From: Arenicellales bacterium
GTDB lineage: Bacteria; Pseudomonadota; Gammaproteobacteria; Arenicellales; JAJDZL01
Direction: 5' to 3'
DNA length: 64,000 nucleotides
Assembly: GCA_965243645.1 (NCBI GenBank)
Contig: CBDEVD010000006.1
Coordinates: 9,570 to 73,569, forward strand
Positions 3,450 through 6,956 of this stretch are shown here, one piece after another. The translations under genes and the position numbers were made by a program. Each line of letters begins with the position of its first letter. Position 1 is the first letter of the stretch. The notes beneath the pieces are model-generated. The model was not told the origin of the DNA and did not search any database. It saw only the letters and a program-made list of their open reading frames with translations.

Positions 3450-3950
3450 CTACGCTGTCTTGATCAGGAAAAGTGGCTGATCAAATTCGACCAAATTGCC
3501 ATCTTCTGCAAAGATTGACACAATTTCACCAGCGGTGGTTGCTTCGATCGTTGTGTATAGTTTCATGACTTCGATCAGGCACATCGGATCACCTTGGACA
3601 ACCGTTGTTCCGACTTCAACAAAGGTAGGTTCATCGGGATTGGGTTTGCGGTAAAACGTTCCAACCATTGGCGCGCGCAGAATTTCGTGTCCCGATGGTA
3701 CCTGTATATCGCTTGCCGTATATTGGTTTTCATCAGTCGAATGCGCTACCAGTTCGGGCGTGGTGTGCTCTGCGACTGGCGCGGAATCGACGGCAGATGT
3801 CGGCATCTTCTTCGGTCCAGTTGGCACCGCGGTGCGTTTGCTGACCGCAAGCCGTAAGCCTTCAACCTCAAGGTTGATTTCATCGGCGCTTGATTCATCA
3901 ATCGCCTTTAAAATTTCAGCAATGTCTTTAAAACTTAAGGTCATTAGCAA
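3450..3950 (-). CDS. Biotin carboxyl carrier protein (stand-alone BCCP)
   Basis: 166 aa. An Ala/Pro-rich linker is followed by the biotinyl domain ...GDPMCLIEVMKLYTTIEATTAGEIV (E-V-M-K-L biotinylation motif). It is divergently transcribed from the biotin carboxylase gene. Confidence 0.85.
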   Translation of the reverse strand: MLMTLSFKDIAEILKAIDESSADEINLEVEGLRLAVSKRTAVPTGPKKMPTSAVDSAPVAEHTTPELVAHSTDENQYTASDIQVPSGHEILRAPMVGTFYRKPNPDEPTFVEVGTTVVQGDPMCLIEVMKLYTTIEATTAGEIVSIFAEDGNLVEFDQPLFLIKTA

Positions 3951-4149
3951 AATACGGTATTGAATCTAATTATGTCAGACAAGATAGATCTTTCAAATTG
4001 AACGGAAATCTTGTTTGTATTATTTCACATGTCCGCAATATATTACTCGTATATTAGGAATATACAAAATTGGTAATGCATCAACAGTGTAGCAATTCTA
4101 ATCGCAGGTGCTTATTGCAGTTGCGTTTGAATTGGTTTGAATCCATCGT

Positions 4150-5502
4150 ATGAAACGTGTTCTGGTAGCAAATCGAGGTGAAATTGCGGTTCGGGTTATT
4201 CGGGCTGCGCGTCACCTCGGCATTGAGAGCGTGGCGATTTACACCGAGCCAGATGCCAAATCATTACATGTTTTGCAGGCGGACCGTGCAGTCCGCATCG
4301 GTCCATCAACTGCGGGCGACAGTTATCTGAATCAGTCCGCAATCGTTCACGTTGCTCAGCAAACGGGTTGTGATGCCATTCATCCGGGCTATGGTTTTTT
4401 ATCCGAAAATTCCGAGTTTGTTGAATTGTGTGAATTACAGGGCCTGCAGTTTATTGGACCGACGGCTGATACCATCCGCCGTATGGGTGACAAGGTTCAA
4501 GCGCGCACTGAGGCGAGCGGCAGCGGTATCAACGTGGTACCTGGAACATCGCAGCCATTTACCAACTCGGATGATGCGTTTGCTCAAGCAGCGAGTATTG
4601 GATATCCGGTACTGATTAAAGCCCGTGGCGGTGGTGGAGGTCGAGGCATGCGGGTGGTGCATACGGCCGCATCATTTGCAGCTGAGTTTACCCAAGCGTC
4701 GCGCGAGGCAGAGTCGGCATTTTCAGATCCGGCCATGTATCTGGAAAAATACCTGTATAAAGTCAGACATATAGAAGTACAGATTTTAGGCGACTTGCAT
4801 GGTAACGTCGTTGCTCTAGGGGAACGCGACTGTACAGTTCAGCGTCGTCATCAGAAACTCGTAGAAGAGGCACCCTGTGCGGTTCTCGCGCCTAATGTGC
4901 GAGCACAGCTACATAACGCAGCCGTTCAATTGGGTCAGTCGATTGCTTATCAGGGTGCGGGGACCGTTGAATTTGTCTTGACTCAAGATCGGCAGCAGTT
5001 TTACTTTATCGAAATGAATACCCGAATACAGGTTGAGCACCCGGTTACTGAGCAGTTGTTTGGCATCGATTTGGTTGAAGCACAATTACGTCTCGCACGC
5101 GGTGAATCTGTATCAGATATTGTTCAAACAGATCGAGGTTACGGTCATGCCATTGAATTCCGGATCAATGCAGAGAGTTGGCGGCATGATTTTCGTCCCT
5201 CGCCAGGGGCTATTCAGCGTTGGAAACTGCCAGCTGGTGCTGGCATACGGGTGGATACGCATTGCTATGAAACGTTTCACATCAGTGTGTTTTATGATTC
5301 ATTGATTGCTAAACTAATCGTATACGGACATGATCGCAGTCATGCGCTGACGCGTGCGCGGGCTGCACTGTCAGATTTTGAAATTGTGGGGATCGATACA
5401 TCAGTGGGATTTCACCAGCATCTGTTGGACAATGTGTCTTTCACAACAGGTGACATTTATACGACCTGGGTGGAAGAGGAATTCTTGCGGGAGAACGGCT
5501 AG
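4150..5502 (+). CDS. Biotin carboxylase subunit (ATP-grasp, AccC-like)
   Basis: 450 aa: MKRVLVANRGEIAVRVIRAARHLGIESVAIYTEPD..., YPVLIKARGGGGGRGMRVV, FIEMNTRIQVEHPVTE. The family signature is full length. Confidence 0.9.
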   Translation: MKRVLVANRGEIAVRVIRAARHLGIESVAIYTEPDAKSLHVLQADRAVRIGPSTAGDSYLNQSAIVHVAQQTGCDAIHPGYGFLSENSEFVELCELQGLQFIGPTADTIRRMGDKVQARTEASGSGINVVPGTSQPFTNSDDAFAQAASIGYPVLIKARGGGGGRGMRVVHTAASFAAEFTQASREAESAFSDPAMYLEKYLYKVRHIEVQILGDLHGNVVALGERDCTVQRRHQKLVEEAPCAVLAPNVRAQLHNAAVQLGQSIAYQGAGTVEFVLTQDRQQFYFIEMNTRIQVEHPVTEQLFGIDLVEAQLRLARGESVSDIVQTDRGYGHAIEFRINAESWRHDFRPSPGAIQRWKLPAGAGIRVDTHCYETFHISVFYDSLIAKLIVYGHDRSHALTRARAALSDFEIVGIDTSVGFHQHLLDNVSFTTGDIYTTWVEEEFLRENG

Positions 5503-6956
5503 TGTCGCATTCGGTAAAGATTATTGACCTAACGTTGCGTGATGCACATCAGTGCCTGTGGGCGACGCGTATGACTACCGCGATGATGAAGGATATTGCG
5601 CCGCGATTGGATCAAGCAGGATTTGAAGCCATTGACCTTGTCGGTGGTGCAGTATTCGATGTATGTGTGCGCTATCTGCGAGAAGATCCGTGGGAGCGGA
5701 TGCGGATACTATCAAGTTGGGTGAAAGATACCCCGCTGATCATACACACGCGTGGACAAAGTCTGTTTACGTTCGAGTTTTTTGCAGATGATGTTGTTGC
5801 GCTTTCAGCAGAACGATTTGCCGCCAATGGGATGCGCTATCACACACCATACGATGCGCTCAATGACATCCGTAATTTGGAAGTTGCAATTCGTTCAGCC
5901 AAGCAGGTTGGGTTGCATACCATCGGTGGCGTGGTCTTTACGGACAGTCCGGTTCACAGCGATGAGTATTATGCGGGCAAAGCCCGAGAGTTGCTGAATC
6001 TTGATGTTGATGGTATTTACATCAAGGATGCCAGCGGCTTGCTGCGACCGGACCGGGCAATGAAACTGGTGCCGGCGATCAAACAGGTGATCGGGGATTT
6101 GCCGTTGCAACTGCATTCACACTGTCTGTCAGGACTCGCACCGTATACGGCATTGCTGGCGGTTGATTGTGGTGTGGAAGTTGTTCATACTGCCACCTCG
6201 ACTTTGGCAAATGGTGCCTCGCATTCGCCGACGGAGTTATTCGTTAGGAATTGTCGGCGGCGCGGACATACAGTTGATCTCGATCTTGAACCTGTCGAGG
6301 AAGTCGCTGACCGACTGGCTTACCTCGCCAGAATCACGGACAAACCATTGGCTGAAGTTGCACAATACGATGAATTCCACTTTCATCATCAGATGCCCGG
6401 TGGGATGATTTCAAATCTCAAATACCAGCTAAGTACGGTTGGGTTGGAAGATCGCCTTGAAGATATACTGGAAGAGGCGGGTCATGTGCGTGCAGATCTC
6501 GGTTATCCCATCATCGTCAGTCCGTTTGCGCAATACATCATTACTCAGGCAGTGCTGAACGTGATGGGTCGTGATCAGGGTAAGCCGCGCTATGAATCAG
6601 TACCCGATGAGGTACGGCTTTACGTACGGGGTGGTTACGGTAAAGTTGTCGGTGACATTGATCCAAATTTATATGACAAAATTGTACGAGGTGCACAGCC
6701 GATTACTGAGCGGCCAGGCGCGCATGTACCCAAAGCGCTTGAGAAGCTTCGAAAAACGCGTGGTCCTTTTGCATCCGATGATGATCTGCTGCTAGCGGCC
6801 TATTATGCTGATAAAGAATATGCGGAACTAAAACGTGCCGGACCCATTCGTCTGGACACCGATGCAATTGGTGCAACACCCTTGGTTACCCTGATCAAAC
6901 AATTGGCCGCGCGTCCTGCAATTCGATCTTTCAGTTTAACCAGCAACGCTGCATGA
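5502..6956 (+). CDS. Carboxyltransferase subunit of pyruvate carboxylase / oxaloacetate decarboxylase (5S, HMGL-like TIM barrel) type, with no fused biotinyl domain
   Basis: 484 aa: IIDLTLRDAHQCLWATRM..., YIKDASGLL (carbamyl-Lys position), LQLHSHC (metal His), QMPGGMISNL. It ends before any BCCP domain. The GTG start overlaps the BC stop by 1 nt. Confidence 0.85.
   Translation: MSHSVKIIDLTLRDAHQCLWATRMTTAMMKDIAPRLDQAGFEAIDLVGGAVFDVCVRYLREDPWERMRILSSWVKDTPLIIHTRGQSLFTFEFFADDVVALSAERFAANGMRYHTPYDALNDIRNLEVAIRSAKQVGLHTIGGVVFTDSPVHSDEYYAGKARELLNLDVDGIYIKDASGLLRPDRAMKLVPAIKQVIGDLPLQLHSHCLSGLAPYTALLAVDCGVEVVHTATSTLANGASHSPTELFVRNCRRRGHTVDLDLEPVEEVADRLAYLARITDKPLAEVAQYDEFHFHHQMPGGMISNLKYQLSTVGLEDRLEDILEEAGHVRADLGYPIIVSPFAQYIITQAVLNVMGRDQGKPRYESVPDEVRLYVRGGYGKVVGDIDPNLYDKIVRGAQPITERPGAHVPKALEKLRKTRGPFASDDDLLLAAYYADKEYAELKRAGPIRLDTDAIGATPLVTLIKQLAARPAIRSFSLTSNAA

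Follow-up and report, generated by a model that had tools for sequence, protein, structure and literature searches.

What does a biotin-dependent carboxylase of the pyruvate carboxylase (PC) type act upon when its carboxyltransferase (CT) carries no biotinyl domain and the gene that follows encodes an enzyme for the cleavage of beta-keto acids (BKACE)? [quoted passage not shown] The three proteins are confidently predicted to form a single Xcc/Hpe-like carboxylase that depends on ATP and biotin. As to its role, we consider the chances evenly balanced that it turns a keto acid other than pyruvate into a 3-oxoadipate-like acid on which the BKACE then acts, and levulinate (4-oxopentanoate) is put forward as a tentative candidate for its substrate. 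The genes concerned are as follows.

3450..3950, minus strand: stand-alone BCCP, divergent from the BC gene (Biotin_lipoyl, TIGR00531, EVMKL)
3951..4149, no strand: AT-rich divergent intergenic region, presumed from its sequence to hold the promoters
4150..5502, plus strand: BC subunit of the ATP-grasp type (three BC Pfam domains)
5502..6956, plus strand: CT with the PC/OadA/5S fold and without a biotinyl domain (HMGL-like and PYC_OADA, 484 amino acids)
6979..7806, plus strand: BKACE (NF053568, 463 bits against a cutoff of 350)

Components of the carboxylase

Domain and family calls were made with Pfam and NCBIfam/TIGR models, each bit score being judged against the cutoff of its model. The BCCP has the Pfam domain Biotin_lipoyl at residues 91-163, scores 125.9 bits against the TIGR00531 cutoff of 115.2 and carries the biotinylation motif EVMKL; an ATG three codons inside the TTG-initiated open reading frame (ORF) is its likelier start. 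The BC contains the domains Biotin_carb_N, CPSase_L_D2 and Biotin_carb_C, passes the subfamily model NF006367 (615 against 597) and falls below the cutoff of the accC equivalog (580 against 626). Automatic pipelines name the BCCP and BC partners accB and accC in related trios; no accA or accD was found among the genes neighbouring the BCCP and BC genes, and the partner encoded there is the PC-type CT.

The initial annotation of this locus had described a stand-alone BCCP, a BC and a 484-residue CT without a biotinyl domain, and all three are borne out by ORFs at these positions and by their Pfam domains. The overlap of one nucleotide that it placed between BC and CT is likewise there, G5502 being common to the BC stop codon TAG and the CT start codon GTG (TAGTG), with GGGAGA upstream. 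The neighbourhood of the CT was surveyed by tblastn and ORF clustering in 80 genome loci, 20 of Arenicellales type and 60 others, together with several contigs. In relatives the BC/CT junction is mostly a 4-nt overlap. The BKACE gene does lie directly downstream as had been annotated, the spacer being 22 nt rather than 23: its ATG at 6979 is 22 nt past the CT stop codon and has a GGGAGG Shine-Dalgarno sequence in front. From this arrangement the BC and CT genes are predicted to be translationally coupled, and BKACE to be translationally linked to them. Promoter and terminator scans of the locus gave nothing above chance.

Relation to characterised carboxylases

The initial annotation knew of no characterised carboxylase in such a context. 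The architecture does have a precedent, as XccBCA and HpeCBA are characterised three-component carboxylases of methyl ketones (PMC9618137). XccBCA of Aromatoleum aromaticum EbN1 is a homologue of HpeCBA and a three-component biotin carboxylase (PMC8461187). In Rhodococcus rhodochrous GD02, HpeCBA (ApkCBA) turns 4-phospho-acetophenone or 4-phospho-acetovanillone into a beta-keto acid by carboxylation at the acetyl methyl, using one ATP, which is converted to ADP, and does not accept unphosphorylated, non-anionic ketones (PMC9618137). Like the set in the window, both have a separate BCCP, BC and CT (~49-57 kDa).

An Hpe-like locus on a plasmid of Rhodococcus oxybenzonivorans (L092) holds genes for a pair of PEP-utilising kinase proteins, a CoA ligase, BCCP, BC, a 499-residue CT, a thiolase and a phosphatase. 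Its CT (7953-9452) is BCCP-less and 38-41% identical to that of the window, with which it was matched at 40.7%, and the two have in common a series of motifs that are not those of PycB and OadA, namely GF..IDLVG, TR....TF, (K/E)DA, VHTA, PF.Q, HQxPGGM and an SDD(D/E)L tail. At this level of identity they are nevertheless members of separate clades and not orthologues, and where the window CT keeps the carbamylated lysine of PC (IKDASG) the Hpe-like CT has a glutamate (IEDAAG); such a glutamate would be a natural carboxylate taking the place of the carbamate metal ligand. The pathways differ as well, in that the aromatic substrate of HpeCBA is first phosphorylated by HpeHI and the product is then dephosphorylated, ligated to CoA and cleaved hydrolytically or thiolytically, with no BKACE and no TRAP transporter, whereas the window locus has both. 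Neither an HpeHI-type PEP-utilising kinase nor an HpeD phosphatase is present in the window or in the annotated related loci. Amongst PC-type CTs this aromatic Xcc/Hpe system is the only characterised exception that we found to a role with pyruvate or oxaloacetate.

Acetone carboxylase (AcxABC) and acetophenone carboxylase are functional analogues, in that they spend ATP to carboxylate a methyl ketone and the resulting beta-keto acid can enter metabolism, but they work without biotin, consume more ATP equivalents and have no sequence relationship to the biotin-dependent set of the window. The acetophenone carboxylase of A. aromaticum is furthermore not homologous to HpeCBA (PMC9618137).

The carboxyltransferase and its clade

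The nearest solved relatives of the CT are the beta subunit of two-subunit PC (PycB, 5KS8), OadA (2NX9) and the transcarboxylase 5S subunit, at 37-40% identity, and an AlphaFold2 model of the CT matches 5KS8, 2NX9 and 1RQH with TM scores of 0.72-0.75. With PycB and OadA it shares the fold, the metal ligands (D14, K175, H205 and H207, all conserved) and the triad R13, Q17 and R84, which is conserved too; in PC these three residues bind and polarise pyruvate. PycAB also resembles the window set in having its BC as a separate subunit. PycB and OadA differ from the window CT in their C-terminal biotinyl domain and their substrates, pyruvate and oxaloacetate, and OadA has membrane partners and no BC, whereas the window CT has a BC directly upstream and neither oadB nor oadG turned up among its neighbours. 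The 5S subunit of Propionibacterium shermanii transcarboxylase (1RQB) is like the window CT in its PC-type fold, in the lack of a fused BCCP and in the use of a separate small biotin carrier (1.3S), but there is no BC in that system, the CO2 comes from methylmalonyl-CoA via 12S and the substrate is pyruvate; no 12S gene was seen near the window CT.

The initial annotation regarded a CT without BCCP as exceptional, and this view does not hold, since the 5S subunit is long known to be of this form and a large family of such proteins is found in sequence databases. A HMMER search was made against 1.84 billion cluster representatives (50%-identity clusters) and size classes were counted in the best 150 matches: 57 are of BCCP-less size (465-535 aa), 27 of them aligning through the C-terminal tail, and 36 are of BCCP-fused size (at least 565 aa). 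As judged from these matches, BCCP-less CTs are a large and common family and the three-part architecture is neither unique nor uncharacterised. What is uncharacterised is the present CT clade and its pairing with BKACE, and the enzyme is widespread. The best 120 database homologues of the CT, of 461-507 aa and at least 71% identical, have HMGL-like and PYC_OADA only, and those with a named source come from Gammaproteobacteria, Alphaproteobacteria and one metagenome-assembled genome (MAG) of the Acidimicrobiia. The best genomic relatives are Arenicellales MAGs (Gammaproteobacteria), with CTs 78-90% identical, and across the two proteobacterial classes the clade spans 69-90% identity.

No plasmid-borne close orthologue was found, none exceeding 49% identity. 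Plasmids of Burkholderia sp. THE68 (L093), an Arthrobacter (L094) and Sulfitobacter faviae (L095) do carry further uncharacterised trios of a BCCP-less CT with accB and accC, accompanied in the first by an acetoacetate-decarboxylase-family gene, an acetate symporter, carbonic anhydrase and bioA, in the second by a short-chain dehydrogenase/reductase (SDR), an MFS transporter and BioY, and in the third by DctPQM. A record titled Leptospira interrogans strain LS0056 (L061) holds a 71%-identical CT with neighbours of alphaproteobacterial type, and is probably a case of contamination or misbinning of that assembly.

At 53 positions the CT clade has a conserved residue where PycB and OadA share another. 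The motif differences pointed out initially, LWATRM and IKDASG, are real and form part of this set. The stretches LLRGQNLLGY, FR(I/V)FD, KDM and VTPTSQ, which PycB and OadA keep, are all changed in the window CT, and from PycB/OadA to the clade the replacements include LLRGQNLLGYRHY to IHTRGQSLFTFEFF, LQMLLRGQNLLGYRHY to LIIHTRGQSLFTFEFF, DVFRIFD to RYHTPYD, HLH to QLH at position 203, VDxxIS to VHTATS and VTPTSQIV to VSPFAQYI; KDM has become KDA in the window CT, but members of the clade vary at position 177, where L087 and the A3 consensus have KDP. In the AlphaFold2 model many of the replacements map to the barrel strands, at their C-terminal ends or close by, and from the alternation of residues along the strands we infer that H82, H114, Q203 and H229 face into the barrel where PycB and OadA have L, F, H and D.

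Could the enzyme nonetheless be a three-subunit pyruvate carboxylase, either anaplerotic and linked to BKACE by chance, or making oxaloacetate for a BKACE that would yield oxalyl-CoA and acetoacetate, with the SauS-like enzyme of some related loci as an oxalyl-CoA reductase? The metal ligands and the R13/Q17/R84 triad would allow it, the CT passes NF006761, a "pyruvate carboxylase subunit B" model of "domain" type (442 against 402), lactate racemase is among the members of the LarA family represented near some of these carboxylases, and a structure search with the BKACE finds ObcA among distant relatives of the same fold, an enzyme which reportedly uses oxaloacetate and acetyl-CoA for oxalogenesis. 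NF006761 is, however, the only such model passed, the CT missing both PycB equivalogs (NF010644, 369 against 734; NF010645, 305 against 1182), the OadA equivalog (TIGR01108, 392 against 756.5) and the 5S model (NF008984, 323 against 827), and all over the barrel mouth it has other residues than those common to PycB and OadA. The initial annotation had proposed that the CT be placed phylogenetically against PycB and OadA, and in a neighbour-joining tree with these proteins all BCCP-less CTs split from both, the window CT clustering with the CTs of ketone carboxylases. The pocket of the BKACE, furthermore, matches 3-oxoadipate enzymes and not substrates with a carboxylate directly on the keto carbon, and a gene context so tightly catabolic, with transporter, IclR and SDR genes, is at odds with housekeeping anaplerosis. 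The carboxylase is probably not a pyruvate carboxylase, and this alternative in either of its forms would seem distinctly unlikely; a dedicated catabolic role, as suggested initially, is supported by the comparative data. A canonical PC was sought elsewhere in the window, and the 1156-aa ORF at 35091-38561 proved to be an IOR-like 2-oxoacid:ferredoxin oxidoreductase instead.

BKACE and the side chain of its substrate

The BKACE passes the NCBIfam equivalog for 3-oxoadipate:acetyl-CoA acetyltransferase, NF053568, with the score given above. Its best match among solved structures is PDB 3NO5 (356 bits, phmmer), which was deposited as an uncharacterised protein. Plasmid-borne homologues in beta-ketoadipate contexts are 60-70% identical: in Skermanella rosea the gene directly follows those for maleylacetate reductase and an intradiol dioxygenase, in Roseomonas it stands within pcaD-pcaH-pcaG-BKACE-pcaB, and in Massilia, Phyllobacterium and Caballeronia it lies beside quinate/shikimate and dehydroshikimate-dehydratase genes, whilst roseobacter homologues, 53-55% identical, overlap pcaG or pcaD. 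It has previously been proposed that BKACEs replace PcaIJF in pca clusters (PMC8963497). The window BKACE thus has in common with the 3-oxoadipate enzymes the equivalog, the sequence identity, the Zn ligands and the Arg/Lys set, as it keeps H47, H49 and E229 (the Zn ligands) and K18, R87 and R89, the two arginines lying in an STGGRGR motif that is also found in the beta-ketoadipate group. It differs in partnership, pca-type BKACEs being paired with ring-cleavage enzymes and this one with a carboxylase, and in the tree the carboxylase-linked BKACEs form their own clade, sister to those of beta-ketoadipate contexts. F125, P175 and C217 are specific to this clade, together with N214, which also occurs in one member from an aromatic context.

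Canonical carnitine clusters, as in Caballeronia and Bacillus cereus, encode a choline-type solute-binding protein, a BKACE, L-carnitine dehydrogenase and a thioesterase. Their BKACEs are 35% identical to that of the window, have an insertion of ~20 residues and are without STGGRGR and the K18/R87/R89 set. Because of its kinship with 3-oxoadipate enzymes and its arginine motif, in both of which the carnitine BKACEs differ, the window BKACE is predicted to be suited to an anionic side chain such as that of 3-oxoadipate and not to the cationic one of 3-dehydrocarnitine.

Conservation of the gene neighbourhood

BKACE is directly downstream of the CT gene in all 20 Arenicellales-type loci and in 24 of the 53 other loci with enough downstream sequence, BC is directly upstream of the CT gene in 54 of 69 loci, and a BCCP gene is near BC/CT in 62 of 86 CT-carrying sequences, a count that includes the window and a few duplicate contigs. 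A TAXI-family TRAP transporter is found in 41-42 loci, with its permease gene adjoining the TAXI gene; the TAXI solute-binding proteins of clusters from differing lineages are 51-85% identical, a level implying that they have one ligand in common, and the PDB relatives of this protein and of the SDR were uninformative as to what that ligand is. Outside the Arenicellales-type loci an SDR gene is directly beside BC/CT in 38 of 60 loci, and an IclR gene was detected in 31 of the 60, as against none of the 20 Arenicellales-type loci; in many loci it occupies the BCCP-BC junction (e.g. L081, L086 and L087). Loci of the latter type have a LarA-like nickel-pincer enzyme with LarB, LarC and LarE, and L034, L043 and L049 hold LarA-like genes as well; in the closest LarA group only LarAH14 has been tested, and it is not known to have any activity. 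In L034 (5070-6461) and L049 (5045-6277) a second BCCP-less CT paralogue, 42-44% identical, is encoded directly upstream of the LarA-like gene and adjacent to the BCCP/BC/CT set, and one BC/BCCP pair may there serve two carboxyltransferases.

In L008, L012 and L018 a self-contained module of LarCEB, LarA-like, TRAP, BCCP and BC-CT-BKACE(-GST) genes is set in unrelated flanks (transposases, Fic, methylase, aroB), and clustering gives the same gene order in L015 and L019. There is no dehydrogenase gene in the modules of L008, L012 and L018, which leaves the carboxylase as the sole candidate supplier of the beta-keto acid for BKACE. That a PC-type CT carboxylates a ketone and so supplies this beta-keto acid, an idea already present in the initial annotation, is the interpretation which the comparative data favour most.

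In the window, BKACE is followed by a further five genes on the same strand.

7914..8633, plus strand: Nu-class (YfcG-like) glutathione transferase, GST (GST_N/GST_C; NF010579, 234 against 332)
8646..9764, plus strand: family III CoA-transferase, not CaiB (CoA_transf_3; CaiB model, 69.5 against 413)
9898..10863, plus strand: carnitine-dehydrogenase-like (CDH-like) 3-hydroxy-acid dehydrogenase of the 3HCDH type (NF005471, 400.2 against a cutoff of 414)
10870..12933, plus strand: fused ADP-forming acyl-CoA synthetase (CoA_binding_2, Succ_CoA_lig and ATP-grasp_5)
13045..13836, plus strand: crotonase-family enoyl-CoA hydratase, CaiD-like below the cutoff (ECH_1; NF002936, 361 against 500)

The hydratase gene ends the plus-strand run, the next ORFs being on the minus strand. 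These genes join the carboxylase as a set only in Arenicellales-type loci, so the "carnitine-type operon" of the initial annotation does not stand as a conserved context. The CDH-like gene is present in 15 of the 20 Arenicellales-type loci and in none of the 60 others, close homologues of the CoA-transferase were found in Arenicellales-type loci only, and the GST gene follows BKACE in these loci and in L030 and L039. In short, the linkage that had been expected in relatives is conserved for BKACE and not for the carnitine-like genes.

These genes had led to the proposal that trimethylaminoacetone arising from 3-dehydrocarnitine is re-carboxylated, with BKACE producing betainyl-CoA and acetoacetate. 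The CDH-like protein does come close to the L-carnitine dehydrogenase cutoff and is ~51% identical to annotated enzymes of that name, a CaiD-like hydratase is present, and elsewhere in the window there are two dimethylglycine-dehydrogenase-like proteins and a BetI/Rieske ORF. The locus also shares with carnitine clusters of the cdhCAB type a dehydrogenase-then-BKACE logic, but it has a carboxylase, which they do not, and it is without the CdhB thioesterase and the choline-type (CaiX-type) solute-binding protein. The CoA-transferase that had been assigned to the CaiB family scores far below the CaiB model, the BKACE is of another subtype than that of genuine carnitine clusters, and a cationic substrate is hard to square with the conserved arginine pair. 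Moreover, the carnitine-like genes are found in none of the 60 non-Arenicellales loci that share this CT (at 69-76% identity); BKACE is retained in only about half of these. We therefore depart from the carnitine assignment, the BKACE grouping as it does with beta-ketoadipate enzymes, and give this model very little credence.

It is also conceivable that the carboxylase has a salvage or repair function, the CDH-like dehydrogenase or the SDR making 3-oxoadipate from 3-hydroxyadipate and the carboxylase re-carboxylating levulinate that is formed from it by spontaneous decarboxylation, which would transfer the reasoning of the initial annotation from carnitine to a dicarboxylate. Beta-keto acids do decarboxylate spontaneously, the SDR gene is a frequent neighbour of BC/CT outside the Arenicellales, and the CDH-like, hydratase, CoA-transferase and synthetase genes after the Arenicellales BKACE mirror the scheme of crotonobetaine, carnitine and dehydrocarnitine. 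Modules without any dehydrogenase nevertheless still hold BC-CT-BKACE and the transporter, and a three-gene, ATP-consuming enzyme coupled to BKACE would be costly for mere repair. Since the activity of the carboxylase is identical in this case and in the dedicated route through levulinate, physiology alone separates the two; we regard salvage as unlikely.

A possible route from levulinate to succinyl-CoA

In the dedicated route, the BC would carboxylate biotin on the free-standing BCCP and the BCCP-less TIM-barrel CT would move the CO2 onto the methyl carbon of a metal-bound ketone, which is expected to bear an anionic group at a distance from the keto function, in parallel with the phosphate requirement of HpeCBA. 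If the BKACE substrate is 3-oxoadipate, the only precursor by carboxylation is levulinate, that is 3-oxoadipate minus the added CO2, and the carboxylase would accordingly make 3-oxoadipate, or a very close analogue, from levulinate or a close anionic analogue. The labile beta-keto acid and acetyl-CoA would then be converted by BKACE to succinyl-CoA (or an analogous anionic acyl-CoA) and acetoacetate, so that, in net terms, one ATP would render a methyl-ketone acid cleavable without prior activation with CoA. The TAXI-TRAP transporter may import the keto acid or a hydroxy precursor, the SDR of other lineages may oxidise a hydroxy precursor such as 4-hydroxyvalerate to the ketone, and the LarA-like nickel-pincer enzyme may take the place of the SDR in Arenicellales loci. 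The genes that are added only in the Arenicellales may start from an enoyl- or hydroxy-dicarboxylate and arrive at the same beta-keto acid, or may process the products; their simplest reading would be a carnitine-like logic applied to a dicarboxylate, with activation, hydration, CoA transfer and oxidation of a 3-hydroxy acid.

That a widespread module of marine Alpha- and Gammaproteobacteria carries out this particular route, a previously unknown one in which a levulinate carboxylase makes 3-oxoadipate and BKACE makes succinyl-CoA and acetoacetate, is a possibility that we rate as less likely than not.

Several observations weigh against it. A literature search returned no paper on the gene set and no substrate for the CT clade, and searches that combined BKACE/DUF849 with carboxylase or biotin, levulinate, 3-oxoadipate and sulfoacetyl-CoA gave no matching gene set. 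To our knowledge, neither levulinate nor 4-hydroxyvalerate is established as an abundant marine metabolite. In the CT, the retention of R13, Q17 and R84 means that an alpha-keto acid could still be the substrate, and the pLDDT of the AlphaFold2 model is below 50 exactly in the active-site loops; in the BKACE, the replacements L125F and A/V217C could point to an anionic side chain that is shorter than that of 3-oxoadipate or otherwise unlike it. In 28 of the 53 non-Arenicellales loci no BK1-type BKACE was found within 10 kb, and loci without BKACE do not show a 3-oxoadipate CoA-transferase or thiolase (PcaIJ/PcaF) in its stead, the genes downstream there being inconsistent (sulfatase, sulfotransferase, HAD, amidohydrolase, acyl-CoA dehydrogenase). 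Finally, a number of neighbours do not fit the route and are left unexplained by it, namely the SauS-like, TauE/TSUP, Nu-class GST, second BKACE, amidase and LarA-like genes. A gene for a SauS-like acylating aldehyde dehydrogenase directly follows CT or BKACE in L081 (Roseovarius-like), L086 and L050, and succinyl-CoA would need no such enzyme, whereas sulfoacetyl-, malonyl- or oxalyl-CoA would, which keeps a sulfonate variant of the scheme alive.

Alternatives suggested by the other neighbours

Of these neighbours, the amidase and TauE/TSUP permease genes occur in 12-17 loci (TauE/TSUP in 17), and a second BKACE, 31-36% identical and with an SDR of its own, in 11. The second type is of ~301 aa, is without K18 and the STGGRGR arginines, and is co-transcribed with SDR and TAXI-TRAP genes (L086 14710-18157, L087 1378-3081, L050, L030 and L037), the module sometimes including a CurA-like enone reductase and another GST as well. 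SauS-like genes were found in 9 of ~84 loci, mostly alongside the second BKACE, and the enzyme has a 64%-identical homologue in Azospirillum, in a context that looks sulfoacetate- or sulfite-related.

In the sulfonate variant the carboxylase would act on a sulfonated methyl ketone such as sulfoacetone and BKACE would produce sulfoacetyl-CoA and acetoacetate, after which SauS would reduce sulfoacetyl-CoA to sulfoacetaldehyde, desulfonation would follow and sulfite would exit via TauE. The gene after CT/BKACE in L081, L086/L039 and L050 passes the SauS equivalog (704-766 bits against 600); its closest plasmid homologue, that of Azospirillum, has as neighbours a Pta-like gene and three molybdoenzyme genes, the latter set being read as a SoeABC-like sulfite dehydrogenase, and SauS homologues of 48-51% identity overlap genes for AMP-binding ligases, read as sauT. 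The anion-binding arginines of the BKACE are kept, and the bulkier residues specific to its clade, F125 and C217, would be in keeping with an anionic side chain of lesser length. On the other hand, SauS-like genes are confined to so few loci, an Xsc gene was not seen in the annotated SauS-containing ones, and neither SauS nor TauE is present in the window and its Arenicellales relatives; TSUP proteins are not specific to sulfite, and we know of no report of sulfoacetone or 2-hydroxypropanesulfonate as a natural product. The ADP-forming synthetase of the window has no meaningful similarity to the ligase pair beside the Azospirillum SauS. All in all the sulfonate variant would seem quite unlikely.

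Acetoacetate could also be imagined as the substrate, the carboxylase making 3-oxoglutarate and BKACE cleaving it to malonyl-CoA and acetoacetate. An AtoE-like short-chain fatty-acid transporter and an acetoacetate-decarboxylase-family gene adjoin the Roseovarius cluster, the SDRs resemble 3-hydroxybutyrate dehydrogenases at the family level, and the SauS homologue could plausibly reduce malonyl-CoA, but the AtoE and decarboxylase genes occur in one locus only, and we hold this reading to be extremely improbable. The conversion of acetoacetate to 3-oxoglutarate was rejected on stoichiometric grounds: its net result equals that of acetyl-CoA carboxylase, with no net use of acetoacetate and no catabolic sense.

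The insertion element and the rest of the window

Upstream of the BCCP gene, the window holds the transporter genes and a mobile element.

1..702, minus strand: TRAP permease (fused, DctM-type), first 234 codons; the gene continues beyond the window edge
815..1784, minus strand: TAXI-family TRAP solute-binding protein, 5'-truncated (NMT1_3/TIGR02122; formal ORF to 1861)
1785..3449, plus strand: IS110-family insertion between the TAXI and BCCP genes (transposase ORF 1861-2955)

The permease fragment is 81% identical by tblastn to residues 1-234 of its orthologue in L001, which has the Pfam domain DctM. The IS110 element (NF033542, 290 bits; DEDD_Tnp_IS110 and Transposase_20; GC content up to 0.59) is missing from syntenic loci, in which ~80 bp separate the BCCP and TAXI genes, and it parts the TRAP genes from the BCCP promoter. 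The DNA homology of the TAXI gene to L001 stops at window position 1784, ~32 codons before the start in L001; as far as LTCPFGCGVMEGN the N-terminal sequence is a different one, the signal-peptide codons being replaced by sequence flanking the insertion. As the element has replaced the signal peptide (~32 codons) and cut off the promoter, the transporter is probably disabled in this strain, or uptake by it at least impaired. Further mobile-element genes are found at 20143-26298 (UPF0236, a YhgA-like transposase and a DDE transposase), the genome being rich in insertion sequences, and relatives too have transposases next to the module (L008).

Elsewhere in the window, two dimethylglycine/sarcosine-dehydrogenase-like genes (42014-44428 and 60080-62515; DAO and GCV_T) and an apparent fusion of a BetI-type TetR domain with a Rieske/ring-hydroxylating oxygenase in one long ORF (51254-53068) suggest that catabolism of quaternary amines of the betaine type is encoded; use of carnitine by this organism is plausible, though not via this BKACE. 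The plus-strand genes at 31348-41234 form an uncharacterised catabolic cluster, with a TPP enzyme, an SDR, an acyl-CoA dehydrogenase, the 1156-aa IOR-like oxidoreductase (POR and DUF6537), another acyl-CoA dehydrogenase and an aldehyde dehydrogenase. Polyphosphate kinase 2 is encoded at 15541-16452, and at 57839-59656 is a gene for AceK (isocitrate dehydrogenase kinase/phosphatase), usually taken as a sign of glyoxylate-shunt control.

Implications

Enzymes of the kind described here are currently labelled "pyruvate carboxylase subunit B", "oxaloacetate decarboxylase", "acetyl-CoA carboxylase" and "3-keto-5-aminohexanoate cleavage protein", and such labels mislead metabolic reconstructions for marine and sponge-associated bacteria. 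The family is large and uncharted, the best 150 matches including no fewer than 27 BCCP-less proteins of full length, each the representative of a 50%-identity cluster. Were the proposed route correct, it would constitute a new catabolic logic, in which a methyl ketone is carboxylated and its acyl part is then swapped onto CoA by BKACE, and it would give a methyl-ketone acid a CO2-fixing entry into central metabolism that needs no CoA ligase. It would also provide the first aliphatic substrate in the Xcc/Hpe carboxylase family, and a short, ATP-cheap route from levulinate, a platform chemical derived from biomass, to succinyl-CoA and acetoacetate.

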